64,000 nucleotides of DNA from Candidatus Moanibacter sp. (GTDB lineage: Bacteria > Verrucomicrobiota > Verrucomicrobiia > Opitutales > UBA2987): contig CBDCEW010000080.1 of assembly GCA_965215885.1 (NCBI GenBank), positions 21,820-85,819 on the forward strand, read 5' to 3'. The first letter of the stretch is position 1; the number at the start of each line of letters is the position of its first letter. The position numbers were made by a program, and so were the translations under genes. This document shows, piece by piece, positions 6,927 to 47,893 of this stretch. The notes beneath the pieces were generated by a model. The model worked only from the letters and a program-made list of their open reading frames with translations, ran no database searches and was not told the DNA's origin.

Positions 6927-7231
6927 CCGCGGATGACGCGGATTTAAACGGATGAGAGAGCGGAGTTCGTTAACACTTCGCATCGTGAATCATAATCCAT
7001 TCGACGGTTCGTCGTGCTCATCACAGGCAGGCCTCAGGGCAGGAAAGAGAACGAAGAGAAATGAAGAGGGAGAGTTTCCCACGGATGGCTCCGCAGTACC
7101 ACGGATGGAAGAGTGGATTTCCCACAGTTTCGAGAAAACCGCGGGGCTGCCATACAGCAGACTCTGCGAGATTGACCTTTGAATAAGGAAAGCAGGAAAG
7201 CAGGAAGTTGGCCACACTATCAACCGAGGTA

Positions 7232-7409
7232 GGAGTCGATCCAGCTGAGCGGGACCTCTCTGCTGTAGGGCAGAGCATGAAACGCGAAGAAGGGCTTTCC
7301 CAAGAGCGCATCCGGACCATTAGCCTACTAATAGCGCTTTTGGGAAAGCCCTTCTTCGCGTTTCTCGACTCGCATAAGCGAGTTGGTCCCGCTCAGCTGG
7401 ATCGACTCC
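7232..7409. repeat. Cruciform palindromic element (nested inverted repeats)
   Basis: 25-bp perfect outer arms GGAGTCGATCCAGCTGAGCGGGACC; 30-bp inner arms 7280-7309/7334-7363; two side hairpins. Confidence 0.8.
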
Positions 7410-7878
7410 CTATTCTCCGTTCTGTGACTGCCAGATCTGAGGCCTCTCTCTATCCGCGCCATCCGTGAAATCCGCGGTCACTCTGATGCCGATCGACCTC
7501 ACGTCGTAAGATGTTTTGTAGTCTTCCCGGTCCTCCTGGCGAGCCGGGACCGGGAGGATTGCACGTTCAATGAATCCGCGGTTTTCCCTGGCTCGGCGCA
7601 TCCCGATCAGCGGGAGAAGACGGCTCGAATCCGTGGTCAATTCATCTTCATTTGCGTTAATTTGCGTGCATTTGCGGTTCTCTTCTTCTTTTTTGTTTGC
7701 CGCCGAAAGCTGCCTTAGAAAGCAATACCCCGGCTTGCCGGGGTGAGCCTGTTGAATCCGCCTAACATTCGCTTTGACTATGCTTCCACGGAAGTAATCT
7801 AATGTTGCGTAAGCGAGCACCTCCTTCTTTTCGAAACTAACACTCAAGAAACCTTGGTACTTAGCCACAGAATCAACG

Positions 7879-8961
7879 ATGAAGCATCCAACAGAAAAAA
7901 TCTACCGCGGCGCGGTCATAGGAACCGGGCGCATGGGCAGTAAGATTGACGACGAACAGAAGTACTACAACTTCCCCTATCCCTGGTCGCACGCGGGCGC
8001 GATGGTCGAATCGAAACGAGTCGAGCTGGTGGCCGGTTCCGACCTCATGCCGGAGCAGCGCGAGGACTTCAGAAACCGTTGGGGTGTCGATGCGGTTTAC
8101 GAGGATTTCCGCGAAATGCTGGCGAAGGAAGAGATCGAGATTGTGAGCATTACGACCAAACACGAGGAACGCGCGGATGTGATAATGGCCTGCGCTGAAG
8201 CCGGTGTAAAGATCATTTACCCTACCAAGCCATTATCCAACACCCTTGCCGAAGGCGACGCCATGATCCGTACGTGCCGGGAATCCGGATCGCTTTTGGC
8301 GGTCTCCTGCCACCAGAACTGGAGTCCCTGGTTCCATGCCTGTCGAAAGTCGATTCAGGACGGCGACATCGGCAAAGTCACGGCGATCATCAGCCAGAAG
8401 AGTCTTATCGACCACAACGCCGCTTTGATGCGCATGTTTGCCGAAGCGGCGCCCAAATGGGTCATGGCCGACGTCAATCGGGATGGACCTGCGGCCATCA
8501 TCGGATTCGAAAACGGTGTGCGCGGATTTCTCACGCCCGGCGGGTGGCAATACCTGCAGATCATAGGCACCGACGGCTGGATTGATGTGCGCGACGAATA
8601 CCGGGAATTCGAATTGTGGCGCCGCTTTCCTAACGGGTTCCCGCCCGAGATGGTGGAGGGTTTTCAGGCCTTCGGCGGCGGGGTGCGGAAAGATCCTCCG
8701 GCCCGCATGCTGTTTCCCAATCCGCGAATACCCATGAGTTCCCAAACCGCCAGTATCGATGCGCTGGTCAGCGACTACGAAAATGGAACGACCCCGGAGT
8801 GCCCGGGTGAGTGGGGTTTAGAAGCGATGGAAATGTATATCGGTGTCGCCGAATCATCGGATCAAGGGGGAAGTAAGCTCGAGATTCCACTCGCTGACCG
8901 AGGTCTGACGGTCAATCCCGCAAGCAACCGGGAACGGCGAGAGAGGCGCGGAGATCCCTAG
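7879..8961 (+). CDS. Gfo/Idh/MocA family oxidoreductase
   Basis: GAVIGTGRMGSKIDDE; clear paralog of 3796-4815. Confidence 0.9.
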   Translation: MKHPTEKIYRGAVIGTGRMGSKIDDEQKYYNFPYPWSHAGAMVESKRVELVAGSDLMPEQREDFRNRWGVDAVYEDFREMLAKEEIEIVSITTKHEERADVIMACAEAGVKIIYPTKPLSNTLAEGDAMIRTCRESGSLLAVSCHQNWSPWFHACRKSIQDGDIGKVTAIISQKSLIDHNAALMRMFAEAAPKWVMADVNRDGPAAIIGFENGVRGFLTPGGWQYLQIIGTDGWIDVRDEYREFELWRRFPNGFPPEMVEGFQAFGGGVRKDPPARMLFPNPRIPMSSQTASIDALVSDYENGTTPECPGEWGLEAMEMYIGVAESSDQGGSKLEIPLADRGLTVNPASNRERRERRGDP

Positions 8962-9212
8962 GGCAGCGTAGCCGCAACCAAATTGAGAGAAAAAGAGGAA
9001 CCGCGAATGCACGCGAATTAAGAAGATTTGACCGCGGATGACGCGGATTTACGCGGATGAGAGAGGGAGAAATTTTGGCAATGGAGGATCTTCTTTAGGA
9101 AACAAGGCTGAACAACAGATTCTGCCAGATTGAGAGTGAATAAGGAAAGCAGGAAAGCCCTTCGACTACGCTCAGGGCAGGCAGGAAATTGCCCATACTA
9201 TCAACCGAGGTA

Positions 9213-9538
9213 GGAGTCGATCCAGCTGAGCGGGACCTCTCTGCTGTAGGGCAGAGCCTGAAACGCGAAGAAGAGCTTTCCCAAGAGCGCGAATGCATTT
9301 TAGCCCACTAATAGCGCTTTTGGGAAAGCCCTTCTTTGCGTTTCTTCACTCGCATAAGCGAGTTGGTCCCGCTCAGCTGAGCGGGACCTCTCTGCTGTAG
9401 GGCAGAGCCTGAAACGCGAAGAAGAGCTTTCCCAAGAGCGCGAATGCATTTTAGCCCACTAATAGCGCTTTTGGGAAAGCCCTTCTTTGCGTTTCTTCAC
9501 TCGCATAAGCGAGTTGGTCCCGCTCAGCTGGATCGACT
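9213..9538. repeat. Tandem dimer (151-bp period) of the cruciform element
   Basis: Two identical units sharing GCTCAGCTGAGC at the junction; near-identical to 7232-7409. Confidence 0.8.
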
Positions 9539-9802
9539 GGCTATTCTCCATTCTGCGACTGCCAGAGCTAAGTCCTCTCTCTATCCGTGCCATCCGTGAA
9601 ATCCGCGGTCAAGCTGATCCCGATCGACCTCACGTCGAAAGATACTTCCTGGTCCTGGCGCGGCGGGAGGATTCGGCTTCTCTTCTTCGTTTCTCTCCGT
9701 TTCCTTCTATTCAATTCTCTTCCCTATTCGTTGCCCTTCATTCATTCGTTGCTAACTCATTCCTTTGGTTGCGGTAACGCTGCGCTAGGATACGACAGAT
9801 TG

Positions 9803-10546
9803 CTAACCCGGCGCCCGGAGGATCCGGTAATCGCGGTCCTTTCCCTGAGCGACGGTGGCTTCGTTGTAGGAGAGGATGAAAGCGCGGCGGTGATTGTCGC
9901 TGTGGTTGCCGAGGGAGGAGTGAAAGACCTTATTGCTGAAAAGGACGACGCTGCCGGCGGGAATCTCACAGTATACCGTATTGGGCAGATCCACCTCGCC
10001 CGGTAGGAAACTCAGGCGGCAAGCCCCGTGGTCGCGCGAAGAGCGAGGTTCATGGTCAAGGATGCCCTGCTGATGGGTGGCGGGCGCTACACGAAGACAG
10101 CCATTGCGCCTATCCGTGTCCAGGAGGGGGACCCACAGGGACATACGGCACCGGCTGAGCCCGGTCTTGTACCAGTAGGCTTCGTCCTGATGCCAATGGC
10201 ATACATTGTTTGGCTCATTGGGGCCTTTGGAGATGAGTTTGGCCGAGAACAGGGCGATCCCGGGGTGGACCAGATCCTCAATCAAAGCGAGAATGCGGGG
10301 ATCGGAAGCAAAGTTTTGCGAGCGCTCGGAATCGGCGCCGAGACTGTGGATATTATTGCGCTTCTCTTCAGTTTGAGCGATCTCGGGGTCCTTCAGTCGT
10401 TCCTGGAAGCGCTCCTCCAGTTCCGCATTGAGTTCATCGAGTTCCTCCCTGAGGAAAACGTGGTCGACGATCAAGTAGCCGTTTTCATGAAAGAAGGCCA
10501 GTTGCTCGCCGGAGAGCTTGCGGGCTTTGGGTTTGGACTTTTGCAT
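9803..10546 (-). CDS. Phytanoyl-CoA dioxygenase (PhyH) family Fe(II)/2OG dioxygenase
   Basis: QLAFFHENGYL, WHQDEAYW (HxD), NGCLRVAPATH, FHSSLGNHSDNHRR; start codon uncertain. Confidence 0.9.
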   Translation of the reverse strand: MQKSKPKARKLSGEQLAFFHENGYLIVDHVFLREELDELNAELEERFQERLKDPEIAQTEEKRNNIHSLGADSERSQNFASDPRILALIEDLVHPGIALFSAKLISKGPNEPNNVCHWHQDEAYWYKTGLSRCRMSLWVPLLDTDRRNGCLRVAPATHQQGILDHEPRSSRDHGACRLSFLPGEVDLPNTVYCEIPAGSVVLFSNKVFHSSLGNHSDNHRRAFILSYNEATVAQGKDRDYRILRAPG

Positions 10547-11216
10547 CTCCTTGGAATTTAGATCACGATGGAAAGTTCGAACAGACCTTTCTCTCATCCT
10601 GGCTCTCAATCGTGATCTTCCGTTTTCCTATTTATTGCGTGATTAAGATCCACTCGATTGTCGTCGTCGTAATCGTAGTCAATTGTCGGTAAGGCTCAAG
10701 TTTTGAGCCTTCGATTATGACGACGATTACGGAAAAAAGAGATTGAAAATCCATCAGCTTCCCGTCTCCCATTCTCCTCCTCTCCGCGTCTCCCATCGTG
10801 GCTCTCAATCGTGATCCGCAGTCGACCACCCCATGCTCCATTAACAATTCACAGATTCTACAGCTAGAAAAGGGAGAGATTTCTCACGCATAGATCCCGG
10901 CAAGCCGGGACAAAGGGGCAAAGAGAGGAGAGGAAGTCAGAATCATTTTGCACGATAATATAGGAGCGTTTTGGCAACGGATGAATGGAAGACGTAGATC
11001 CCCTTCAGCGGGATGAGAACGTGGAGGTATTTCAGCGGAATCTTTAACGGTAACTTACGTGGTTGTCTGGTTCAGGGTTAAATTCGGCAGTTGTCGGGAG
11101 CAGCTAACCGTGTATCGACAAAGCTGACGACGAAGACGAAGTTTAACCAGAAACCAGACACCCGAAACCTCGTGTCAACTTTTCATGCGGACTCCACATC
11201 TTCATTTCTCTCTAAC

Positions 11217-11266
11217 TGTGAACCGTGAACCTCTGAACCCCTGAACCCTTGAACCTCTGAACCTTG
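11217..11266. repeat. Degenerate 7-8-bp tandem repeat (TGAACCyY)
   Basis: tgaaccg-tgaacctc-tgaacccc-tgaaccct-tgaacctc-tgaacct. Confidence 0.7.
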
Positions 11267-11297
11267 ATCCCCGGGTGTCTCAGTAGCTTTTCGGGTT

Positions 11298-12143
11298 TCA
11301 CTTCCCGGACCGCTTGGGCGGAGTGGCCGAGACGCCCGTCAGGCCACCGCTGACGGTGAGCACCTCGCCGGTGATCCAGGAGGCGGCCGGACTGCAGAGA
11401 AAGGCGACGCTCCGTGCGATGTCGCCGGGCTCGCCCCAGCGGCCAAGGGGGATGGCGCCACGTACGCGTTCGATCATCTCCTCCTCGTCGATGTTGAGAC
11501 TCTGGCTGCGCTGTGCCATGTTGCGCCGATTGAACTCGGTGTAGACCGGGCCCGGGCACACGGCATTGACGCGCACGCCATAGGCAGCCAGTTCCAGGGC
11601 GAGGGTGCGGGTCAGACTGATGATGCCGGCCTTGGCTACGTTGTAGGCGGCGACGAGGGCGACCGGGCTCTGGCCGTTGATCGAGGAGATATTGACAATG
11701 CACCCCGACTCCTGCTCCTCCATGATGCGGCCGGCGACACGGCAACAGTAAAAAGCGCCGGTCAGGGTGGCGTCGAGGACCCGCGCCCACTCCTGGTCGC
11801 TCAGTTCGACGATGGGGGTTACATTTTGGCCGACACCGGCGTTGTTGACCAGGATGTCCAGGCGTTTGTGGGCGCCGATCAACTCTTCGAAGCGGGCGTT
11901 CACAGCGGCGCTGTCAGTGACGTCCAGGCGGGCGGCCTGAACCTTCAGGTCTTGTTCTTGAAGCAGTTGGGCTTCCGCCTGCGCCTTTTCCAGTTGCAGA
12001 TCGGCTATAGTCACCTCGGCGCCGTTGCGCGCCAGTTGTTCGACCATGGCCAACCCCAGGCCCTGGGCGGCGCCGGTCACCACCGCGACGGCCCCATCGA
12101 GTCTGTGGTCAGAGGTTCGCTCCGCGCTCATGCGAGTATCCAC
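11298..12143 (-). CDS. SDR family NAD(P)-dependent oxidoreductase
   Basis: [18 protein letters not shown] (YxxxK), VNAVCPG; start could be ATG 12131. Confidence 0.92.
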
Positions 12144-12224
12144 TATGGTTTGCTCGGACGTGATGGGTCAACAGATTTTGGTTCAAAGGGAGAAGCGGAG
12201 CCGGTATTGCTGTGAGGTGACGGG

Positions 12225-12497
12225 TTATGCTCTCTTATTAATCTCAGCCTCCAATTTCTCTGTGAGAAAGACCTTCATGAGTGATTGATAGGGAACATCC
12301 CTTTTGTTAGCGAGGGTCTTGTATCGCTCAATTAAGGATTCCGGAAGGCGAATCGAAATGGAGCGAAGAGAGGGCTTGAGGTTGGGAAACTTCGCCCTTC
12401 TCGATTGCGCCCAATCGATATAATCGGTGGTATCTTCTTCTGCCCAAAACTTCCGTTCTTCTTCTTCGGATTTAAACTTCGGAATTTGCTCTTTCAT
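12225..12497 (-). CDS. BrnA/CopG-like RHH antitoxin
   Basis: IPKFKSEEEERKFW...NLKPSLRSISIRLPESLI...VPYQSLMK. Confidence 0.8.
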   Translation of the reverse strand: MKEQIPKFKSEEEERKFWAEEDTTDYIDWAQSRRAKFPNLKPSLRSISIRLPESLIERYKTLANKRDVPYQSLMKVFLTEKLEAEINKRA

Positions 12498-12654
12498 ACT
12501 CGCGTCTCTCCTTCCTGCTCATGTCTCGGGCCGATTTGACTCTGACCATATTTTTCCGAACCGTGAATACCACTTGGAGCCGTCTCTCATGATCCGTCGT
12601 TCCGAGTAAATACCATCGCGATTCTTCGGTCGAGTGCTTGAGATCTTCATAGAT
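12472..12654 (-). pseudogene. C-terminal half of a BrnT-family toxin; N-terminus missing
   Basis: My translation: IYEDLKHSTEESRWYLLGTTDHERRLQVVFTVRKNMVRVKSARDMSRKERREYERANSEV*; abuts the sulfatase stop and has no start. Confidence 0.75.
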
Positions 12655-14108
12655 TAATACCGCCCAATCCGCCGTGGCCCTAGGTCAACCGAAAAGGCCA
12701 GCGAATCAAATGCTTTTCGAATGAGGCGTTCGCGGATCGAGAGGTGCTCTTCGCTCTCCCAGAGGTTGTTATGCTCCCAGGGATCACTCTCGAGATCATA
12801 GAGTTCTCCGCAGGCATGCCCATGGTAAACGGCGCATTTGTATCTGCGCTCACGGATCATGGTTCCATAGCTGCCGGCAAATTCGATATCGTAGCCGATC
12901 AGGTCGATGGTATTGTAGTATTCACTCCGTACAAAGTCACGATGGTGATCGGGCGATTTCTCACCTTCGAGAAGCGGCAAGAGGGAGCGGCCTTCCATGC
13001 GTTCAGGCAATGGGATACCGGCCAGTTCCAGAATCGTCGGCGCCACATCAACGAGTTCAACCAGAGCATTGCTTTGCAGACCGGTTTCAAAACGCCCTGG
13101 CAAACTCATGATCAGAGGCACGCGCACCATCCCTTCGTAGAAGCGGCAGCCGGAACCGGTCAGTCCGTGGTCACCCGATATCTCACCGTGATCACTCATG
13201 AAAATTACCAACGTATTCTCGCGCTGACCGGTTTCTTCGAGGAGCTTCAACAACCGGCCCACATTATGATCAATCAATTCGATCATGGCGTAATATGCCG
13301 CGTTCCTCTCTTTAATCTCCAGCTCGTCGATCTCTCGTGCCTTGTCTGAGAAATCGATTGCGCTCAAACGTTCTTCATTCTCTAGGTCGCTCTCTCTGAA
13401 ATGCGGTCCCGGCATAGCGTTGACCTCGTATCGCTCTTTATACTCGGGCGGCGGATCGAGAGGACCATGTGGATCCAACACATTGACGCTCATCAGCCAG
13501 GGCCGGTCGCGATTTTCGGTGATGAACCCGATGGCCTCATCCGTGCACCAGGTGGTTTGGTGGATCTCGGGCTTGATTGAAGTTTTATAGCCCGCGAATT
13601 CGGTGTCCGCGCCGGGCGGTTTCCGCTCGAAGACCGATGCGGGGTCGATCCCCTGGTCGAGCAGCCACTGCATATAGTGGTTCCCCTGGTCGAGCCGGGC
13701 AAACGGGGAGTGGCTATAGCGGAAGAAGCTGTAGCCGTCCTCGACCCGCTTTTCCGGACCCAGCCACGGTGAGGCGATGTGCAGCTTGCCGGACAGACCG
13801 CAGACATAGTCATGATCCGCCAGTAGCCTGGGAATCAGCGGCGCAGCATCGGAAAACGTCTCGTTGCCGTTGGTGCACGCCCGTATGCTGCTTGGATACA
13901 TTCCCGTGAGAAAGCTCGACCGGCTGGGCGTGCAAACCGCGTTCTGGCAATAGGCATGCGTAAAGGCCACACCTTCCCCGCACAGCCGGTCCAGGTTCGG
14001 CGTGTGGATATGTGGGTTGTTCAGACAATGAATCGTGTCGAACCGCTGCATATCGGAGGTGAACCATAGGATGTTAGGGGGTGTTTTCGGCATCTTTCCT
14101 TTCGTCAT
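12654..14108 (-). CDS. Sulfatase (formylglycine-dependent)
   Basis: PNILWFTSD, CTPSR (CxPxR), SGKLH, SDHGE. Confidence 0.93.
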   Translation of the reverse strand: MTKGKMPKTPPNILWFTSDMQRFDTIHCLNNPHIHTPNLDRLCGEGVAFTHAYCQNAVCTPSRSSFLTGMYPSSIRACTNGNETFSDAAPLIPRLLADHDYVCGLSGKLHIASPWLGPEKRVEDGYSFFRYSHSPFARLDQGNHYMQWLLDQGIDPASVFERKPPGADTEFAGYKTSIKPEIHQTTWCTDEAIGFITENRDRPWLMSVNVLDPHGPLDPPPEYKERYEVNAMPGPHFRESDLENEERLSAIDFSDKAREIDELEIKERNAAYYAMIELIDHNVGRLLKLLEETGQRENTLVIFMSDHGEISGDHGLTGSGCRFYEGMVRVPLIMSLPGRFETGLQSNALVELVDVAPTILELAGIPLPERMEGRSLLPLLEGEKSPDHHRDFVRSEYYNTIDLIGYDIEFAGSYGTMIRERRYKCAVYHGHACGELYDLESDPWEHNNLWESEEHLSIRERLIRKAFDSLAFSVDLGPRRIGRY

Positions 14109-14586
14109 GTTTTAAAGGTAGCTCGTCTGGTTGTATTGTTCAAGGGTTCACCGACAGACGGAGGTGTTTGAACTTCCTTCCATTCTTTTCGTAAGCTTCG
14201 TCGTAAGCTTGATCGACAGACAGACCAAAAAAGATGAGAAAGCTCGCGACAAAGTTTACGACGAAGCTTGCGACAAAGATTCCCTCACGGGGTGAAATGC
14301 TCCCAAACTTAATCGCAAGCTTCGTCGTCAACTTCATCGAGGAATCGATCATGTCGTTTCAGCTCGGTGCGCCCAGGGGCCATTCACGTTCAAGGTTTGA
14401 CTGAGCATCCTGAAAACACATTTCTAGATAGAGGCATCTCCACGTCACTTACTTCACCTACCACTGCAAACGGCCTCCAACCTTGGACTCTCTTGATTGA
14501 CCTCACCGGCAAATTAGCCCTCCTGTCATCGAAGCCGGCTGGATCGATCAAGGCAGCGACCCTATTGATTTTTAAAATAGTGAGCT

Positions 14587-15726
14587 ATGAAATATAAAGC
14601 AGCAGTAATCGGTCTCGGCCGCATGGGAAGTACCTTCGACGACGAAATGTGGCCGGGAACCACACTTCTCAGCCCCTATTGCCACGGCCCAACCTATCAC
14701 GCCCATCCTGCCGTCGACCTGGTCGCGGGCACAGATCCCCACGACGAGCAGCGTGCCATCTTTGGCCGGCGCTGGGGCATTTCTCCAGACCACCTCTACG
14801 CCGATTACAGGGAAATGCTGGCAAAGGAAGAACCCGATATCGTAAGTGTCTGTACTTCGGCCCGTTTACGTCCCCTCATTGTCCAGGACGTTGCCAGAGC
14901 CGGCGTGAAAATCATCTGGGCGGAGAAGCCTATTTCGATAAGCCTCGCCGAAGGCGACAGTATCGTCCGCGTTTGCCGGGAAGAGGGTACTACCCTGGCT
15001 ATCAACTGTGCCCGCCGGTGGTGGATCGGCTTCAGCGGGGTGCGCGATATCATCGACTCGGGTAAAATGGGCAAGGTCCTGCAAGTTACCGCGCACTTTC
15101 CCTGTGATTTGTCGCAAAACGGAAGCCACCTGATCGACGCCATCCGATTTTTGGCCGGCGGCGGCAACGTAGAATGGGTCTTCGGCGAAATCGAATCAGA
15201 CGAATCGGCCGCTGGTGAACTCGATGTCTCGGGCAACGGGTATTTCGCCTTTGATAACGGAATTCGCGCCTTCATTAGAACCATGCCTTGCGGCGACTCA
15301 GTTGGAAATATCTTTGAAGTAATCGGCGAACGGGGCCGAATTCACTGCGAAGAGCGGCCAGCTCACTTCGAATTCATTCGCTTTCAGAGCTTGACGGCAG
15401 TTGAAGACGGTCATCCCGCACCCCTGCCCAGAAGAGTACAACCAGCTGTAGCGCGCTATCAGATTCCCCTGCCTCCGAAGGTAGACGGGCTTGGAATCAC
15501 TGCCCTCAATGATATCATCGCAGCCCACGAAGAGGGACGCCCACCCCGCGTCTCAGGAGAGGACGGCCTCCAGGCTCTGGAAATCGCCATCGCCATGCGG
15601 GAGTCCCACCGCCGGGGAGGCGTCAAAGTGACCCTGCCTCTCGAAGATCGGTCCCAAGGATTGGTGGCCAACGAATCGACTCGGGATGATATTCCAGCAC
15701 GCGTTCGGCGGGCCATGCCTCGCTGA
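14587..15726 (+). CDS. Gfo/Idh/MocA family oxidoreductase
   Basis: AAVIGLGRMGSTFDDE, WAEKP; paralog of 3796 and 7879. Confidence 0.9.
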   Translation: MKYKAAVIGLGRMGSTFDDEMWPGTTLLSPYCHGPTYHAHPAVDLVAGTDPHDEQRAIFGRRWGISPDHLYADYREMLAKEEPDIVSVCTSARLRPLIVQDVARAGVKIIWAEKPISISLAEGDSIVRVCREEGTTLAINCARRWWIGFSGVRDIIDSGKMGKVLQVTAHFPCDLSQNGSHLIDAIRFLAGGGNVEWVFGEIESDESAAGELDVSGNGYFAFDNGIRAFIRTMPCGDSVGNIFEVIGERGRIHCEERPAHFEFIRFQSLTAVEDGHPAPLPRRVQPAVARYQIPLPPKVDGLGITALNDIIAAHEEGRPPRVSGEDGLQALEIAIAMRESHRRGGVKVTLPLEDRSQGLVANESTRDDIPARVRRAMPR

Positions 15727-16028: not shown

Positions 16029-18332
16029 TTAGAAGGTATAATCGACGGTCAAACCGTAGGCTCGGCTTTCACCCGGGGTCATGAGGAAGCGAGCAACGGA
16101 CGTCACGATGTATTCTTCGTCGTTCAGATTGTTGATCATGAGGTTAACCCGCCAGGGACCGCGCCGGTAACCAGCTATGAGCTTCCATAAATCATAACCG
16201 GGAACACGATAGGAGTCCGAAAAGTCGCCGGGCCGGTTATCAGTAATGTGTTTCAGGCCCAGGCCGGCGTAAAACCCTTGCAGGGGACCTCCCTGGAAGG
16301 TGTACTTCCCAAAGACAGAGTATTGGAATCCGGTTGGCACTCCCCGCTGTTTCTTGATTTCGCCCGTGTTCGCGTCCACTCTCCCGCTGTCGATATCCGT
16401 CAACCCGATCATGAAAGTCAAACCATTAATGGGCTCGATAACGAGATCGGCTTCCCAGCCATCCGTCACGGCCGTCCCCTCCTGGGTCGTGAGACTGATG
16501 AAGCCCTCCGTAGGGTGCAGGAAGTCCCTGCCTACCCTTTGATTCGTAAAGTCGATATTGAAATATGACCAGGTCATGGTGATGCGGTTATCCCAGAGGA
16601 ACAATTTCAATCCTACTTCATCCTGTATGCCCCACTGGTTATCAAACGGATCACCCAACTGATTTGTTCCGGACTGCGGAATGAATGTCTCCGAATGGTT
16701 GAAAAAGATGGAAACTCCCTCCCAAGGCTTACCCACAAAGCCGAATTTTGTTGTCAGGGCATCGTTGGATTCAGATCCCGACGTTGTTCCGTCGCCAAAA
16801 TTGCTGGTGCCTGTTCCGTAGTCGTAACGCAAGCCGGCCACAGCCAGAACGCGGTCTTCAAAGAAGCTTATACTGTCCTGGATCGCCCAGGCGAAGTTTT
16901 CAATGATTTGCTTACGCGGCTGGGTAGCATTGTCGTTTCTATAATTGGAAAGGACCTCAGCGGGATTTCGCGGTTGAATAGTAAAGACGCTCTGCTTCTC
17001 CGCATCCCAATTATGTCGGCGATTCAATGTGTGATGGCGAAGCGTTTCCCAATTAAGATAGGTGAAGACACGGTGCTTAGAGGGGCCGAGGGTGAATTCA
17101 GTATTCAGATCAACAGCCAGCACCCCCTGGTCGTAATTTTCCTGCCGGGTCCTGGAGATCGCGTTAGGGTAGACGATGATATCCACATCCTCGCCGGCCG
17201 CCTTCAATTGATTATACTTGGCGAACGTTGCAGTGGTATGGAATAGCTCCTCCTCGCCTGCCTCATTGAGGAGGACATTCCCCTGCGAATCCGCCAGGGC
17301 ATGATTAACAGTCAAGTAGATGCGGAATTGATGAGCATGGTCGCGGAAACGACCAACAATCCGGCCATGCCAGCGAGTGCCGAACATGTCGAAGGAATGC
17401 TTGAAATTGAGCTCGAAATCGTGCAGTTCCGACTGCCGACCGACTTCGGGATCAGCCAGGTTGGACATGGGAACATCATTCGGGATGACTCCAAAGGGCA
17501 AAACCTTGTCCGCATCGTGGAACCAGATGCCGCGCGCTTCGGCGAAATGGTAATCCTGGAAATGGTAGCGAAAAGTAAGACTGGTATTGTTCTCCTCATC
17601 GATCAAATAAGTAAACATGGGAGTAAGCGTGAACTCATAATCCTTGCCGCCATGGCGTGAATGGCCATCCTTGTAACCGCTAACAATTCGAGTAAGGAGC
17701 TTGTTATCGCTTCCCCATACTCGATTGGTATCGATGTAGCCGCCATACGTGTCATAGCTGCTGGATCTGAATCCGATCGAAGTTTTGTTCTCATTATGCG
17801 GGGCCTTCCACACCTGATTGATGAGACCGCCAATAACATGCGTTCCGAAGAGGACTCCCGCCGGCCCCTTGATTATTTCGAGCCGCTCGAGTACGAGGGG
17901 GTCTACATGGAAGGATGCGGGTCCTCCCGCCTCAATCCCGTCCCGAAAGGTCATGGTAGCGCTCGAGCTGAGGGCCTGACCCCTCATGATCATCTGATTG
18001 ACGCCGGGAGTGGAAGTCTTGTGGATACCACTGAACCATTCAGCAACCTCATTGAAATTGATCGGTGAAAGGTCATCGATGAATTCTTTGTTTGCTATCA
18101 GGACTGATACTGCAACCTTGTCCAGGGAGGTATTGATTCGCGTTGCCCCCAGCGTATAAAGCGAAGCCCAGCCACGGTCTTCGTCCTCTGTCACCTCAAA
18201 CGGGGTGAGAACGACAATTTCCTGTTCATCCTCAACTTCATCAGTCTGGGCGACCAGAAAAGCGGGTAGAATAAGTCCCAAGATTAGTCCCAATCTCAGG
18301 GTAATGTAATGTTGTTTATTTTGATTTTTCAT
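16029..18332 (-). CDS. TonB-dependent receptor
   Basis: Signal peptide, plug motif ERLEIIKGPAGVLFG, C-terminal NNLNDEEY...YGLTVDYTF. Confidence 0.92.
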   Translation of the reverse strand: MKNQNKQHYITLRLGLILGLILPAFLVAQTDEVEDEQEIVVLTPFEVTEDEDRGWASLYTLGATRINTSLDKVAVSVLIANKEFIDDLSPINFNEVAEWFSGIHKTSTPGVNQMIMRGQALSSSATMTFRDGIEAGGPASFHVDPLVLERLEIIKGPAGVLFGTHVIGGLINQVWKAPHNENKTSIGFRSSSYDTYGGYIDTNRVWGSDNKLLTRIVSGYKDGHSRHGGKDYEFTLTPMFTYLIDEENNTSLTFRYHFQDYHFAEARGIWFHDADKVLPFGVIPNDVPMSNLADPEVGRQSELHDFELNFKHSFDMFGTRWHGRIVGRFRDHAHQFRIYLTVNHALADSQGNVLLNEAGEEELFHTTATFAKYNQLKAAGEDVDIIVYPNAISRTRQENYDQGVLAVDLNTEFTLGPSKHRVFTYLNWETLRHHTLNRRHNWDAEKQSVFTIQPRNPAEVLSNYRNDNATQPRKQIIENFAWAIQDSISFFEDRVLAVAGLRYDYGTGTSNFGDGTTSGSESNDALTTKFGFVGKPWEGVSIFFNHSETFIPQSGTNQLGDPFDNQWGIQDEVGLKLFLWDNRITMTWSYFNIDFTNQRVGRDFLHPTEGFISLTTQEGTAVTDGWEADLVIEPINGLTFMIGLTDIDSGRVDANTGEIKKQRGVPTGFQYSVFGKYTFQGGPLQGFYAGLGLKHITDNRPGDFSDSYRVPGYDLWKLIAGYRRGPWRVNLMINNLNDEEYIVTSVARFLMTPGESRAYGLTVDYTF

Positions 18333-18619
18333 AACTTTTCAGGTTTTTGGTTAGTGTGTGATAATTTGATGGTTATAGGGTTCAGGGTTAGTTAGACAAT
18401 TCAATACAGGGCGTAAATCGCCAAAAGTTTGTATAGAGGCGGTGTTTTTATGCTGTCAAACCAATTCTTAGAAAAAATCGTCCGGTTCGATTGATAGGTT
18501 CTTCTGTTGCAAGGTGTCGAAATCCAGCATCAAAGCTGATCGAAATTGTGGATTGCTTCGTCGTTCCTCCTCGCAATGACAGAATCGGCCGCGCATTCTC
18601 GAAAATTCCGCGGGAGAGA

Positions 18620-18935
18620 GGAAACCGTTTCGCTCTTCCTGTCGTGATCATAATCGTAATCTAAAATCGAAAAAGGAAAAGATCGACGGGAGATCACGAT
18701 TGAGAGTCACGATGGGAGAGGGAGAACCATTTCGATCTTTCCGTCGTGATCATAATCGTAATCTAATTTCGAAAAGAGAAGATCGACTGGAGATCACGAT
18801 TGAGAGTCACGATGGGAGAGGGGAATGGCAGAGAAAGGGAGACACGGGGAAACGGAGAAGGGGAACGGCTACAACTTCTTGTCGTGATCATAATCGTGAT
18901 CTAAAATCGAAAAACGAGAAGAGCGACTGGAGAGC
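18620..18935. repeat. Three degenerate direct repeats of a roughly 100-bp unit built from ATCGTRATC-type microsatellites
   Basis: GTCGTGATCATAATCGTRATCTAA at 18641, 18743, 18881; reverse-complement relatives at 10590-10825. Confidence 0.75.
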
Positions 18936-18995
18936 ACGGCCCGGCATGAGCCCGCCGCGCCGGGATCTCGCTACGAAGTGTGTGAAATGTCCGGG

Positions 18996-21319: not shown

Positions 21320-21845
21320 TTGACCAAAGGCCCTAAACGGCGAATCTGGTTTCGGGCAATGCGGACGGAGTAATCCCCCGGCCTCGCGCCGGGGATTTTT
21401 AGGTTCCCGGCTACCCCAAAACTGCTCTTTACCTCTCAGATCCTCCGGGCTTGCACCGGAGAGTCTCAGGTTTTCCTGCTCCTTCGCTCCGTGTTCTCGA
21501 TAGGGTGCACTGTCGCTTGGAGTTCCTAAACAACGTATGGTCAATAAGATGTGCTTGGATGCCAGGCGCTAGCGGTGAAACCTAACGATCCCCGGGACAA
21601 GCCCGGGGGATTCGTTGATTTTCAAGCTCATTAGGTGTAGCTCGAATCCTCAACTTACCCCACGACAAGCGTGGGGGATGTATATTGTAACCACGAGCGG
21701 AAACCCTTGAAGCGGCCCCATCCCGATTGATCGCTTGGGGAAACTTAGGGGCACGCTGGGCCCGAGAGTCGAGTCCAAGGAGGTTTCACAATTCATTCAA
21801 CTAACTGAATATAAGTATATTACGAAACTTGAGGTGACTCCAATG
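21320..21845. mobile_element. Diverged, left-truncated copy of the 573-bp REP-bearing MITE
   Basis: Same ordered blocks as 3044-3616; right end ...CCAATG followed by CGCTGAGCA. Confidence 0.7.
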
Positions 21846-40295: not shown

Positions 40296-40598
40296 TCAGG
40301 TAACAGCGATCTGCTTGACTTCCCTCTTGATCCGGGCTGCCGCCTCGTCTTCTGCCAAGTCCAGATCGTAATCCATCTGAAGACCAAGCCAGAACTGAGC
40401 CGAGTTACCGTAATAGCGGGATAAACGCAATGCCGTGTCCGCCGTGATCCTGCGTTTGCCCTGAATGATTTCATTGATGCGACGTGGCGAGACCCTTAGG
40501 TTGCGGCCCAGTTGGTTCTGGCTCATGCCCATCGGGTTCAGAAACTCCTCCAAGAGCACTTCACCAGGATGCAGGGGCGGTATATGCTTTTTCCTCAT
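40296..40598 (-). CDS. higA: HigA antitoxin (XRE HTH)
   Basis: HPGEVLLEEFL, RINEIIQGKRRITADTALRL, FWLGLQ. Confidence 0.93.
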   Translation of the reverse strand: MRKKHIPPLHPGEVLLEEFLNPMGMSQNQLGRNLRVSPRRINEIIQGKRRITADTALRLSRYYGNSAQFWLGLQMDYDLDLAEDEAAARIKREVKQIAVT

Positions 40599-40607
40599 TC
40601 TTTCACC

Positions 40608-40889
40608 TCAGTGGTAGTCCGCGATTTCAACGTTTTGCGCGTGATTATCGAACCATTCGAAACAGATGCGCCAGCGGTCATTGATACGAATGCTGTGTTG
40701 TCCTTTCCGATCGCCGGAAGGCCGCTCCAGACGATTCGCGGGTGGAATACGAAGATCCTGCAAGTTCGCACTTCGATTGAGCATCCGTAGCTTCCTGAAC
40801 GCCGCCTTCTGAATATCTTGTGGAAGTTTCCTGGAGTACTGGCGATTGAATAGCTTCTCCGCTTCTTTATCCCGGAAACTTTGAATCAT
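40608..40889 (-). CDS. higB: HigB/RelE-ParE family toxin
   Basis: MIQSFRDKE, DLRIPPANRLE, SIRINDRWRICF, EIADYH. Confidence 0.92.
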   Translation of the reverse strand: MIQSFRDKEAEKLFNRQYSRKLPQDIQKAAFRKLRMLNRSANLQDLRIPPANRLERPSGDRKGQHSIRINDRWRICFEWFDNHAQNVEIADYH

Positions 40890-40898
40890 GCCAGGATT

Positions 40899-40923
40899 TA
40901 TAACGCATAGCGTTATATGTAAA
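40899..40923 (-). promoter_or_regulatory. higBA promoter/operator
   Basis: Palindrome TATAACGC-ATA-GCGTTATA next to a TTTACA -35 box. Confidence 0.6.
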
Positions 40924-40944
40924 GAACAATTCGCTCGTTCTTAT

Positions 40945-41290
40945 CTCGAACGTTTGAGGACAGGTGCGCGATTTATCGCGTAACCTGGTCCGATCTGTTA
41001 TGCGCCGGGCAGATCCGACTGCTCGATGGTAATGTTAACGTCAGAAAGGAAATGACACATGAAGTAAACAAAGTCCAGACCCAGCCCGATGGAGGCGAAG
41101 GGTAGCCGATGGCAAGAGTATCGCAGCGATGAGGGCTCGGAGGAAGCCGGAGGCAAAGACGCGTGCTGACGGTTTGGAAGCAGTGGAAGAACCGCCACTT
41201 ACGGCATGCCACGGCGAAGCCCTTTAGGGCGAAGACGGGACCCGTACGAGTGGTGGTGTGGGAGGGGGGGGCGTCCCTATCCCGATCTGC
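40945..41290 (-). other. Integron attC site interrupted in its R'' box by the intron
   Basis: CTCGAAC...GGACAGGTGCGCGAT-tt-ATCGCGTAACCTGGTCC...GTT|intron|CTGC. Confidence 0.75.
41000..41286 (+). mobile_element. Internally deleted group IIC-attC intron remnant (287 nt, no ORF)
   Basis: 5' ATGCGCCGGGCA (GTGCG-like); domain 5 GAACCGCC...GTACGAGTGGTGGTG with CGC triad; domain 6 ending CCCTATCCCGAT; IEP remnant WKQWK; antisense to the cassettes, after GTT. Confidence 0.78.
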
Positions 41291-41468
41291 AGGTTTGTTG
41301 TTCCGGTTCATCTTGAATTCCATCGATATTGTCCTTCCGTCCAATAGAGAGCGGCCTGCCTCACTAGCCGCAGCGTCACGATGCAAATCAGCTGACAGCT
41401 CGTATCGCGCACTCATTTCATGGGATACCAAGTCGACAAATTCGTTCCGATTTGTCTGCGTGTCTGTA

Positions 41469-42383
41469 TCATGCTTCGCCCCCCCCTCGGGCGCTGTGCC
41501 GTGAGTCGACATGACCGCTTCCCGGACGGTGGATCGGACCGCGGTTCTTCACCATCCTGACGAACCAGGCGATGGCAATAGCCGCCGACAGGTGTTTCAG
41601 GGTATGTCCGCTTACGATCCCTCCGGTTCCGGCGAAAATAGCCTCGTCTTTGGACTCAAGTTGCTTGGCAAGAATGTAGAAGACGATAACGAGCAGCAGG
41701 TTGATCGATCCTGTATAGCGGGCTGGAAACAGGACCATCATCGCCGCAACGGCAAAGATTGGGTACGACTGAACAAAGGCGTAAGGTCTGAGATCCCCTC
41801 TCCCCTGAGATTCTGTCCAGGACCAGTAAAAAACGGTAGCCGCACCAATGATCAAAGCAGGCATCAAGGCCAGCAATCCAACCTTGATGCTGATCCGCTC
41901 CATGATCACCGAGATGAAGAAGGCGACAAATCCAATCGTCATGGGCAAGCGGTCCCAAACCAATGTTCCATTATTTGGAGAGAGATGATAGTAGGCCGAC
42001 CCGACACTCACCAGGGTCGTCCCTGCGAAAAACACGAGATAGGGAATCTTCTCCAATGGATCCAGAAACCGCCTTTCCTGCCCCTCTTTATTCAGGACGA
42101 TCACGAGGCCCCAGATTCCAACGATGAGAAAGGCCAAGTTCGAGAGGACATCCAATCCGTTGGTGATCGCGAGGATCCGCCTCTGGTCTGCAAAATTGTG
42201 GTAGCTCAGGTCCTGTGGCAGCGGAGACTTGGATCCCCACCACCAAGCGACGGCCAGGGTAATCAAGCCGAGGAGGATGTAGCGAGTTCTTTGACTAGTA
42301 TACAGCACAAGCGTTACGTTTTTTTCTGTATTCACTCTCGTGTTGCAGACCATGGTTCGAAGTCTTCTTGTTCGATTCGGCAA
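41469..42383 (-). CDS. Ceramidase-like (alkaline phytoceramidase) membrane protein
   Basis: PQDLSYHNFADQR, SNLAF, GSAYYH, WDRLPM, GDLRPY, SGHTLKH; start uncertain. Confidence 0.8.
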   Translation of the reverse strand: MPNRTRRLRTMVCNTRVNTEKNVTLVLYTSQRTRYILLGLITLAVAWWWGSKSPLPQDLSYHNFADQRRILAITNGLDVLSNLAFLIVGIWGLVIVLNKEGQERRFLDPLEKIPYLVFFAGTTLVSVGSAYYHLSPNNGTLVWDRLPMTIGFVAFFISVIMERISIKVGLLALMPALIIGAATVFYWSWTESQGRGDLRPYAFVQSYPIFAVAAMMVLFPARYTGSINLLLVIVFYILAKQLESKDEAIFAGTGGIVSGHTLKHLSAAIAIAWFVRMVKNRGPIHRPGSGHVDSRHSARGGGEA

Positions 42384-42597
42384 TGTTAAAATGGCAACGG
42401 ATGAAAGGACGGCAACGGATGGGGATCAAGGATTCCCACACCCGAAGCGGTTTCGTCTCCGCTTTCTGGCGGCTTAGATCGGTCTTCCAAAAATATCCGC
42501 TGCCATCCTTTCATCCGTTGCAAAATCCTCTTTCTACTTTCCGGGTTTCCGGGACTGCGAGTCTTTCTCTAGACGGAACTCAAAACCTTGTAAGTTT

Positions 42598-44080
42598 GCC
42601 TCGTCAGCAGAATCTGTGGGTTATTTCGGGTTCAGGCAAGTCGCCCATGGTATGAAATAGGGCGATCTTAAGCACTTCGAAGCTCTTAAAGCCGTATGCT
42701 TTTCTGATAGTGAGATTTATATTGCGGTTAAAGCCCTCCACAATGCCGCAGGAAAAGGCCTTTTTGGCCCGAAACCAGTTGAGGATGAGCGGCTCGTGTT
42801 TGCGCACCGAGCGCACGAACCTTTTGATCGGTTTGAGGCGCGAACGCATGGCGCGCGTGCACCATTTTTTCAGATACCATTGGGCCCAGTAGGGACTTTT
42901 ATAATGCCACAAGAGCTGAAAGCTCTCCTTTAGTAGATAGGCCCGCACGCTCTTCAGATCGTATTGGAGCACCTCCTTGAGGCGGATCTGTTGGGTGGGG
43001 GTGAGATTTTGCGGATTTTTCAAGAAACAGTATTTGCTTTTGACCAGCACGTTGATGTAGCCGTCCCGTTGCAATCGCCTGGCTTCCGCAGCACGAATCT
43101 CATTGAGGGCCTTGTTCAGGTTGGCTACCAAGTGGAAGCGATCGAGGATGTGCAGCGCCTGGGGTGCCTTTTTCTTGATCACTTTGAGGTAAGGCTTCCA
43201 CAGATCCGAGCAGACGTAGAGGATCTGGCTGCTCTTTTGCGCTCCCAATTCCCAGAAAAAACGCAAGAGCGATTTTACGTTGCGCTTATTGAATACGCCC
43301 AATAGCCGCCGCCGCCCCTCGTCAAGCTGGTAGACCACGGTGAGATAGTGATGGCCTCGATGATACTGCACCTCATCGACTCCGATCGCCTCAATCCCGC
43401 TCATATCGCGCCGTTTGAGCCCCCAACGCACCATCGCCTCGACCGACTCGAAGACGTTGCGCCAGTTCGTGCGAAAAACCCTTGCCGTCTCTTCCCAGCT
43501 CAAGCGCCTCGCCCACTGGGCCAGAAACCATTGCATTGGCCAACTCAGATGACTCTTGCCCTTGGCCCAGGGCACCTCTTCGACCTTCACCCCGCACCGC
43601 CGGCAATTGACCCGCCGCATGCGGTAACGAAAATACACCTTCATCCCCCACAAGGGCACAAATTCAAAATGCCTCGCCTCGCTCATGTGGTCGTAGCCGC
43701 TGGCCGTCCGGCCACACCCCGAACAGCACACCCGACTATTCTTGCGCGGCTCAATCTGCACCACAATCGCCTCCACCGATTTCACCATTTCCATACTCGC
43801 CTTTGCGTAAACAAAGCTCTTGAGCCAATAGCACCGATTCAGTAGCGTTTTGATGAGCACTGGGTCCTCCGTGTTCAGGATGTATTTTCGGTACTACTTT
43901 CATCCTCGGAACGGCCCGGTGCTTCAACCTTTCAATCCCATATGCAAAGAAAACACCGACCAGCCCCTCCGGCTGTGGAGGAGCGGGATTCAGGGCAGCG
44001 CCCTGACTTCTCCTTGTGCTCACCGACTCTATTTCCTCTTGTAAGCGACGTTACCCACCCACAGATTCTGCTGTAGACCC
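42598..44080 (-). mobile_element. ISL3-family element
   Basis: TIRs sharing CAGCAGAATCTGTGGG; 8-bp duplication GTAAGTTT at 42590-42597 and 44081-44088. Confidence 0.93.
42604..43860 (-). CDS. ISL3 transposase
   Basis: Zn finger CSGC...CRRC, IGVDE, CSDLW, LDRFH, VEGFN. Confidence 0.93.
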   Translation of the reverse strand: MLIKTLLNRCYWLKSFVYAKASMEMVKSVEAIVVQIEPRKNSRVCCSGCGRTASGYDHMSEARHFEFVPLWGMKVYFRYRMRRVNCRRCGVKVEEVPWAKGKSHLSWPMQWFLAQWARRLSWEETARVFRTNWRNVFESVEAMVRWGLKRRDMSGIEAIGVDEVQYHRGHHYLTVVYQLDEGRRRLLGVFNKRNVKSLLRFFWELGAQKSSQILYVCSDLWKPYLKVIKKKAPQALHILDRFHLVANLNKALNEIRAAEARRLQRDGYINVLVKSKYCFLKNPQNLTPTQQIRLKEVLQYDLKSVRAYLLKESFQLLWHYKSPYWAQWYLKKWCTRAMRSRLKPIKRFVRSVRKHEPLILNWFRAKKAFSCGIVEGFNRNINLTIRKAYGFKSFEVLKIALFHTMGDLPEPEITHRFC

Positions 44081-44120: not shown

Positions 44121-44211
44121 TTCGAACGCTAAAGCGGAGGCATGCCGGGCCAATCGGAATCACTTAAACCCGGGCGGATAAACCGGCATTGCCTCCCGCG
44201 AATTGTTGGGC
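44121..44211 (-). other. Integron attC site (91 bp)
   Basis: GCCCAAC...GTTCGAA on the minus strand; homologous to 45603-45693 and 45986-46075. Confidence 0.8.
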
Positions 44212-44221
44212 GATTGAAGTT

Positions 44222-45602: not shown

Positions 45603-45693
45603 GCATAACGTCGGAACGGAGGCATGTCGGGCCAAGCTAAATATATTGAAACGGGCGGCGTAAACCGGAATTGCTTCTCGCGGTTTGTTCGAA
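45603..45693 (-). other. Integron attC site (91 bp)
   Basis: TTCGAAC...GTTATGC; R' equals the box at 44971-44977. Confidence 0.8.
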
Positions 45694-45985
45694 GTTCTCG
45701 ATTTGGATACGGCAAAGATTTGATTGCAACGGATCTAAGCACGGCAACGGATAGGGATCAAGGCTTCCTCTGCCCCACTACGGTTTCCCCAAATCTCTAT
45801 CGTCGCCATGGGCACCTTCTAAAGAATTCCGCTGCTGTCCTTTCATCCGTTGCACTATCTCTTACTGTTTTTCCCGGAATCGAGAACCTTACGAACTATA
45901 TTACGTAGAGTTTCATCTTTCTGCCCGTCATATTCTTGCCATCTCTCTACGATCTCCCCCTGCTCTCCGATTAAGTCTTTGGCTC

Positions 45986-47098: not shown

Positions 47099-47270
47099 AG
47101 CGAACATACAATCGTACACCAGTTGCTGTTTACTTAACTGCTGATAGCCCCGATATGTTGTAGGCTTTTGGTTGTTTGATGGTTAACTCGGTTGAAACAG
47201 CGTTTAACGTCCGGTAATATGCAACCTGTCGTCAATATTGTAATATGCGACAGGTCGCATATTCCTGGAA
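47099..47270 (-). promoter_or_regulatory. attI-like site and upstream AT-rich control region
   Basis: GTTCGCT core (matches the first cassette R'' TGCGAAC at 6/7) with no attC stem upstream; 16-bp inverted repeat AATATGCRACCTGTCG at 47216-47263. Confidence 0.5.
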
Positions 47271-47340
47271 TATCGGGAAAAAGCAACAGTAAAGGCTTGC
47301 AATTTGAGTAAGATAGTGGACATTTGTTCACTTAGTTGTC

Positions 47341-47585
47341 GAAGGTCGAAGGTCGAAGGTCGAAGGTCGAAGGTCGAAGGTCGAAGGTCGAAGGTCGAAG
47401 GTCGAAGGTCGAAGGTCGAAGGTCGAAGGTCGAAGGTCGAAGGTCGAAGGTCGAAGGTCGAAGGTCGAAGGTCGAAGGTCGAAGGTCGAAGGTCGAAGGT
47501 CGAAGGTCGAAGGTCGAAGGTCGAAGGTCGAAGGTCGAAGGTCGAAGGTCGAAGGTCGAAGGTCGAAGGTCGAAGGTCGAAGGTC
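47341..47585. repeat. Perfect heptamer microsatellite (GAAGGTC)x35
   Basis: 35 uninterrupted copies counted by hand. Confidence 0.97.
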
Positions 47586-47893
47586 GAGCGCCTGATCCCT
47601 GCTCGTCGGGAAAATTCCAACGTCGAAACTGACAGGGGCCAACCACGATGAATTTCCTCAGCGAGGTGAAGCGTAATGGCTGGTGGATTTCTGGTTCAGT
47701 GGAGACTTAATTGGCGCCAAAAAGGGGCGTAGATAGCGGAGGGGAGGACTGTACCCTTTTGGCTGAGGAATTTCTGGAGCAACGGAACGGCAAGGAGAAG
47801 TGCTACGGTTCAGAATCGAGGACGAGAACGGGAACGAGGACGATTCTGACGCCTGACGAAGAAGGTCGGGGGTTGTTCTGTCTGGATAGTAGA

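Follow-up and report, generated by a model that had tools for sequence, protein, structure and literature searches.

The 287-nt element at positions 41000-41286 on the plus strand of the window (the whole 64,000-nt stretch of DNA analyzed here) is, by its homology, a copy of a group IIC-attC-type intron that carries no ORF. With a probability of about 0.9 it is an inactive fossil of such an intron, a loss of activity that we infer from the structures missing from its sequence. It is an ordinary example, as fragmented group II introns in cassette arrays have already been described, and it belongs to a multi-copy family. Besides the window element (W), 11 further degenerate copies were mapped, of which A-D lie in a cassette array on contig C105 and E lies on contig C2 of the same genome, and F-K lie in a related genome of another genus (G006).

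The element opens with ATGCGCC at 41000 (ATGCGCCGGGCAG) and closes with CCCTATCCCGAT at 41275-41286; GTT (40997-40999) lies directly before it, and CTGC (41287-41290), the start of CTGCAGG, directly after. In BLAST and pairwise comparisons, similarity to family copies began at base 1 or 2 of the element and ended at the final T of ...CCCGAT. Because the similarity starts and stops precisely there, the boundaries are exact and leave no room for a chance reading. When the 287 nt were compared by BLAST with the genome of the window (G000; 105 contigs, 90.3% complete), the single full-length match was the element itself, and all other matches were partial. Nucleotides 2-172 were 94-95% identical to two places in C105, nt 190-287 were 88-90% identical to C105 and C2, and nt 172-197 were 100% identical to the C2 copy over 26 nt. 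Pairwise comparison with copy C gave 94% identity over nt 2-171. The first base is A, as the initial annotation had pointed out, so that the 5' end reads AUGCG versus GUGYG for group II introns; G1 and the GUG start are kept in all 10 sister copies that retain a 5' end.

IIC-attC introns are described in PMC3001079 and PMC7923331 as inserting into the attC bottom strand, at the R'' position and antisense to the cassettes, and the window element was found in this position and orientation. Along the plus strand, the complement of the R' box (TCGAAC, 40946-40951; top strand GTTCGA) is followed by the attC bottom-strand hairpin (40958-40991; DNA fold -11 kcal/mol), a stem-loop of the kind targeted by IIC introns, which lies just upstream of the insertion. 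The spacer GATCTGTT (40992-40999), as read from the sequence, ends with the GTT of the 5' exon (IBS1-like CUGUU), and ...KGTT likewise precedes each of the 9 other copies whose 5' junction is clean. The first bases of the 3' exon, CTGC (41287-41290), are the remainder of the R'' box (top strand GCAG/AAC, with the slash here and below marking a junction), and GAAC of R' pairs with GTTC across the insertion. The layout of the interrupted attC is the same as that of intact attCs at 44125-44215 and in locus L121. Uninterrupted homologues of this attC type were identified in two related genomes (G005 and G008; loci L121 and L119). The empty-site junctions read ...GATTTGTT/AGGC in L121 and ...GACTGGTT/CGAT in L119, and the uninterrupted attCs read ...CGATTTGTTAGGC and ...CGACTGGTTCGAT, respectively. 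Together with the limits of similarity, these homologues bear out the proposal of the initial annotation that both termini are kept and that the intron sits exactly after GTT of R''. Within G000, the core of this attC occurs three times, each time holding an intron copy (W, A, and E share the attC type).

Neighboring genes all lie on the minus strand, which confirms the proposed antisense orientation of the plus-strand element relative to the cassettes. The downstream cassette encodes a HigB-like toxin (40608-40889, minus strand; Pfam PF05015, 4.8e-21) and an HTH antitoxin (40296-40598, minus strand; PF01381, 7.4e-11). The upstream cassette, to which the interrupted attC belongs, carries an ORF for a ceramidase-like membrane protein (41469-42383, minus strand), and other minus-strand cassette cargo around the element includes PIN/FitA, Unstab_antitox, and DUF2442. 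Intact attCs with their bottom strand on the plus strand were found nearby, via repeats and direct reading, at 44125-44215 (...GAATTGTTGGGC) and ~45605-45695; a scan of the window for RYYYAAC...GTTRRRY gave few sites (3 per strand) and was not discriminating. The gene intI is absent from the contig of the window. One intact integron integrase is encoded on contig C100 of G000 (432 bits, TIGR02249), and a second, degenerate integrase lies beside the C105 array.

A deletion map of the element was drawn against copy C, whose ribozyme looks complete, and against copy J of G006, which has the longest IEP. Intron nt 1-172 (41000-41171) are the 5' half of domain 1 with G1 changed to A; they correspond to D1 nt 1-171 of copy C at 94% identity, with local hairpins kept, and they are all that remains of a domain that the initial annotation had rightly described as shortened. 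Nucleotides 172-287 correspond to nt 1413-1539 of copy J and comprise IEP codons (nt 172-197), D5 (nt 193-257), and J5/6, D6, and the 3' end (nt 258-287). A consensus D1 fold built from six relatives contains 92 pairs, 19 of them with compensatory changes. Its three long-range helices (consensus columns 6-10/394-398, 18-26/371-379, and 187-197/356-367) are represented in the window element by their 5' strands only, as the 3' strands are deleted, and the distal arm of D1 that bears a conserved GCAACACA loop is missing. AACA of this loop complements UGUU of the 5' exon, and from IIC structures we take the loop to be EBS1. The window element thus has no complete D1 with closing helices and an exon-binding site. 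D2, D3, and D4 are absent, with D1 nt 172 leading through 18-26 nt of IEP coding sequence directly into D5.

The coding remnant between the two deletion junctions, VWKQWKNR (41171-41196), is 100% identical to the C2 copy over its 26 nt. The IEP had been described as reduced to about RVLTVWKQWK; VWKQWK, extended to VWKQWKNR, is indeed IEP-derived, whereas RVLT is domain-1 RNA sequence read in the frame of the peptide. GCTG..G microhomology is present at the 5' deletion junction (D1 nt 172 to the end of the IEP), and the 3' junction falls at an 8-nt direct repeat, GAACCGCC, with the C2 copy retaining 183 nt between both repeats. The fusion of the IEP to D5 is also found in copy J. Domain 5 (41192-41256) consists of strands CCGCCACTTACGG and ACCCGTACGAGTGGTGG with the CGC triad, the G-U pair, and a 2-nt CG bulge, and its loop is interrupted by 35 nt (41205-41239). 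It is followed by J5/6 (TGT), domain 6, and the 3' end GAT (41257-41286). The distal stem of D6 has a 10-nt deletion, and an unpaired A of the branch-site type is located at 41279, 8 nt from the end, which agrees with the branch A of group II introns lying 7-8 nt before an AY 3' terminus.

Searches of the whole window with Rfam covariance models gave no match at gathering score. At a permissive threshold, RF02001 (group-II-D1D4-3) matched 41120-41173 with 17.4 bits, compared to a cut-off of 32, and RF00029 (the D5-D6 model) matched none of the family copies at E-values up to 1. The initial annotation had stated that the lack of a group II model match would count against an intron. Technically no such match was obtained, but this is overridden by homology to copies that do match, as RF02001 scored 59.3 bits for copy C (L021 13444-14358, 915 nt) and 34 bits for copy B. 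The silence of RF00029 is a property of the model rather than a sign that D5 is absent, since every family copy was missed and an unrelated intron on contig C92 was found (55.6 bits). The 3' 95 nt of the window element are laid out as CCGCC...GGTGG-TGT-GGGAGG...CCTAT-CCCGAT, and 22 distinct public sequences show the same layout behind the 3' end of related IEP genes. Alignment of these 22 relatives revealed compensatory changes in 14 of the 25 predicted D5/D6 pairs, with the G-U of the CGC triad invariant. Covariation among the relatives and the conservation of the strands, the A, and GAT in the window copy indicate that its D6 is real and that a D5 with an interrupted loop is probably retained.

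The C105 copies lie in a second cassette array (L021, G000:C105:309000-328000; array at 6752-14900), and split or degenerate integron integrase remnants are present at 18126-18939 of the same locus. Copy A is much decayed (~260 nt), copy B (2585 nt) contains an opposite-strand DDE_Tnp_1 transposase ORF, and copy C (915 nt) is directly followed, head-to-tail, by copy D (542 nt). A tandem junction was also seen in L056 and public run X4. In-frame RT remnants were identified in copies B, C, and D (MNSLQQ...RYVDDCVIFVRSE), with RYVDD present in the RT remnants. The C2 copy retains the last ~75 codons of an RT/maturase (...RRRLRALVWKQWKNRRTRVKELRKR...), and its ORF ends ~55 codons past WKQWK and ~40 nt before D5, apparently leaving no room for an endonuclease domain, as would fit an En-minus IEP (RT and X domains only). 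Two G006 copies have long IEP reading frames with a GIIM domain (62.8 and 69.5 bits; copy J is among the GIIM carriers). None of the 11 mapped sister copies has an intact IEP.

All six IEP-deleted copies (B, C, D, F, G, and H) have the same IEP deletion junctions (...GCGCGCTGCA/CTTTGCC... and ...GGTGATGGAA/TTTCC...) within unrelated flanks. Two junctions shared by six copies whose flanks are unrelated suggest that an IEP-less form of ~0.9 kb multiplied after the IEP was lost. This form, with two fixed IEP deletions and a complete-looking ribozyme, occupies at least five unrelated attC sites and one tandem position; it was found at unrelated attC sites in two genera at ~89% identity (L021 13444-14358; L025 1501-2381; L031, minus strand; L035, minus strand). 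A deletion of D1 from nt 119 to ~470 is common to copies D, H, and J at three sites, and its occurrence both with and without the IEP deletion points to recombination among copies or recurrent deletion. Among copies C, F, and G, the ribozyme was no better conserved than the IEP remnant (91-94% identity in both), and only the pre-ORF D4 segment stands higher (97.6-100%).

The hairpin-like D5-loop insertion (35-36 nt) was identified in seven copies, four in G000 (W, A, B, and E) and three in G006 (H, J, and K) (e.g., window 41205-41239; L021 10393-10427; L022, minus strand), but in none of the 22 public relatives. Its sequence is similar to a motif, GCCWCGGCGWAGC...GCGAAGACGG, for which a pattern search found 14 occurrences in the genome, three of them in introns, and which often lies within larger inverted repeats. 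Matches of 39 nt to window element nt 205-243 on many contigs were considered as D5s of other introns and rejected, as there were no group II matches at these loci; they are copies of a short genome-wide repeat. Among public sequences, introns with the closest IEPs (70-74% identical; L057, L073, L092, and L096) also sit after ...GTT in attC-like hairpins, and relatives with IEPs ~50% identical lie directly after T-rich terminator hairpins. The target type splits cleanly with IEP distance (public MAG loci L066-L075, L085, and L087), an indirect hint that the family IEP may belong to the monophyletic IIC-attC clade. In a plasmid search with the family IEP, the best matches were less than 60% identical, and the one context inspected, on an Aeromonas plasmid, was no integron.

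The 287-nt form itself was assessed through its deletion junction, which has one copy in its own genome (BLAST). A 24-mer across the junction had no matches in metagenome_contigs. A 20-mer found four loci in genome_contigs, all in unrelated taxa; they were judged unrelated to the mini form because the match extends over 23-24 nt only and nothing adjoining matches the element. Guessing from LTVWKQWK, which they encode, these loci may belong to IEP genes. The identical mini copies that the initial annotation had suggested looking for were thus found neither in the genome nor in genome_contigs or metagenome_contigs, and the window form does not recur as several copies with the same internal deletion at different sites. 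Contigs of public run X1, possibly the sample of origin, cover the mini form and its junction, and run X4 contains both flanks of the element at ~98-99% identity. No public-run contig joins 40999 to 41287, although contigs cannot show the absence of a spliced or empty form.

The search for a full-length parent, also suggested initially, likewise returned none with an intact IEP among the mapped sister copies. The sole GIIM match in the 90%-complete genome is the IEP on C92, which is 36% identical and whose intron has a canonical AGC D5. No related functional IEP was found in G000, and the family IEPs of G006 are frameshifted or truncated. With an assembly that is 90% complete, the unassembled DNA could still contain a cognate IEP or another copy of the mini form. 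The C92 intron (G000:C92:55888-59103; L023) is a full-length intron of another class with an open IEP of 444 aa, the only maturase-bearing IEP found.

Three other explanations for the window element were weighed. The proposal that it is no intron at all, but a chance resemblance or another type of repeat, draws on the empty Rfam result at gathering score and on the folding energy of the 287 nt, which is unremarkable (MFE z-score of just -1.1). It is refuted by the 94-95% identity over 171 nt and 88-90% identity over 108 nt to copies that match RF02001 and contain RT remnants (RYVDD), as well as by the D5/D6 architecture common to 22 relatives, and is left with practically no probability. It is also very unlikely that the remnant has been kept for a host function, such as promoting outward transcription (Pout) or supplying RNA antisense to HigBA, as in S.ma.I2. 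According to PMC3001079, the outward promoters of full-length IIC-attC introns lie in the stretch from the 5' end to the start of the IEP, a region that the window element retains at 94% identity, and an RNA-library contig spans the HigB region, although it does not locate a transcription start. However, a sigma-70 consensus scan of 40500-41700 identified no promoter-like sites on either strand (0.8 expected), the window copy is conserved as a unit nowhere else in the collections searched, and its point mutations and small deletions look like neutral decay. The exact termini of W, also seen in the internally deleted copies A, E, and I, might be taken to mean that the ends are under selection, but copies without one end also exist (G, I, and K), so selection need not be invoked.

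The initial annotation had offered two readings of the element, a relic or a minimal non-autonomous retroelement. In the latter case, the termini and D5/D6 would suffice for mobilization into attC sites by a related IEP and ribozyme acting in trans. In line with this, the copy still has both of its exact termini, the strands of D5, D6, and an A of the branch type, a related IEP-less form has multiplied (six copies with two shared junctions in two genomes), and copies without D1 nt 119-470 occur at three sites (D, H, and J). Conversely, the junction of the window copy occurs once in the genome and has no true match in genome_contigs or metagenome_contigs, G1 is A, the D5 loop is interrupted, no cognate IEP was found in the genome, D2-D4 are absent, and D1 has neither its closing helices nor an EBS1-type loop. 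Reverse splicing requires the intron's own folded D1 and EBS1. A non-autonomous retroelement is accordingly an extremely improbable description of this copy, and the relic alternative has held up, as most of the ribozyme and the protein gene are lost and the junction is single-copy.

For an inactive fossil, the sequence is consistent with the following course of events. A full-length intron (ribozyme and RT/maturase gene) would have reverse-spliced into the attC bottom strand after GTT of R''. Its middle would then have been lost by at least two deletions, one reaching from D1 nt 172 as far as the last part of the IEP gene and another removing the 183 nt between the GAACCGCC repeats, which would have fused the IEP codons VWKQWKNR to D5. 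The copy would also have acquired the 10-nt D6 deletion and the G1-to-A change, and the 35-nt insertion in the D5 loop would have been inherited from its sub-lineage. The remainder, with no fold of a group II catalytic core, no exon-binding loop, and no protein, would neither splice nor move. The element separates the RRRY part of R'' from the remaining attC by 287 nt, which probably disables IntI recombination at this site; the suggestion of the initial annotation that this attC is blocked is thus reasonable, and a blocked attC would lock the ceramidase-like cassette to the HigBA cassette. The local consequence is one split attC and two cassettes that are probably frozen together, and the present-day effect of the element is likely only passive.

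Taken alone, the window element matters little, as degenerate group II fragments are common and the IIC-attC lineage has been described. The family-level pattern, with tandem insertions, IEP-less copies in two genera, and one D5-loop insertion common to seven copies, is of greater interest, and shows the decay of IIC-attC introns in environmental bacteria, within cassette arrays that are chromosomal and rich in TA cassettes. A tentative reading, which we consider possible but would not favor, is that the IEP-less derivatives are themselves retroelements that spread in trans, with W as a dead member of the family. This would mean that an attC-targeting IIC ribozyme tolerates an extension of the D5 loop, in a sub-lineage at seven sites, and that the copies can be spread in trans by an IEP that these genomes have lost or that has yet to be found in them. 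The internally deleted copies W, A, E, and I would then be by-products of template switching and not later DNA deletions. If the IEP-less form were indeed trans-mobilized, it would represent a rare bacterial family of non-autonomous group II introns, and trans-mobilization would be a further route for introns to reshuffle or immobilize cassettes.

Other repeats were observed in the window. A tandem array of a 14-nt unit (~27 units, with perfect central copies) is located at 47268-47643. An ISL3-family transposase gene (42604-43860) and an intact attC lie between two related 132-nt imperfect palindromes (42392-42523 and 45724-45855; arms GCAACGGATGAAAGGACGGCAACGGAT and complement), which could represent either a second type of attC or some other repeat. 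Several short, G+C-rich hairpins built alike (e.g., CCCCGG...CCGGGG, CCCCGGGACAAGCCCGGGGG, CCCCACGACAAGCGTGGGGG), read as DNA only, are present at 21340-21680. A possible 3' intron end at 21727, proposed by a loose motif search, was rejected as nothing intron-like was seen on reading.

IIC-attC introns such as S.ma.I2 of Serratia marcescens were reportedly described by Leon, Quiroga, Centron and Roy. The window copy resembles them in having D5 strands of the IIC type, with the CGC triad and a short helix, and an IEP remnant of the RT/maturase type. As given for them in PMC3001079 and PMC7923331, it occupies the R'' box on the bottom strand of an attC, behind the hairpin and antisense to the cassettes. 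The published insertion consensus is written TTGT/T in PMC7923331, whereas the window site reads ...CTGTT/C and the sisters and closest public relatives follow TTGTT or KGTT, placing the junction (...TGTT/) one base off; this is a difference in notation or in site. In contrast to IIC-attC introns, the window copy has no IEP, no D2-D4, half a D1, a D5-loop insertion, and A for G1. The setting is not a clinical class 1 integron but an environmental genome, with TA cassettes of the chromosomal type, and the contig lacks intI.

In bacteria, group II introns that lack an ORF and share a genome with related introns encoding an IEP were reportedly described by Simon et al. 2008. Like these, sister copies B, C, F, and G have no IEP; they combine a complete-looking ribozyme with IEP remnants and have multiplied, as expected if they were trans-mobilized. 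The window copy itself is not an ORF-less intron in the functional sense, because its ribozyme core is missing. According to PMC4424553, bacterial ORF-less introns are known but rare and are nearly always accompanied by a related functional IEP in the genome; for the present family, no intact cognate IEP was found in either genome searched. Further counterparts of the window copy are the degenerate introns UHB.F1, H.ha.F1, and H.ha.F2, which likewise occur in arrays of the integron or CALIN type (Sonbol and Siam 2021, PMC7923331), a source which reports fragmented group II introns to be commoner than full-length ones in bacteria. Those three introns are described there as 5'-truncated, whereas the window copy has both exact ends and an internal deletion.
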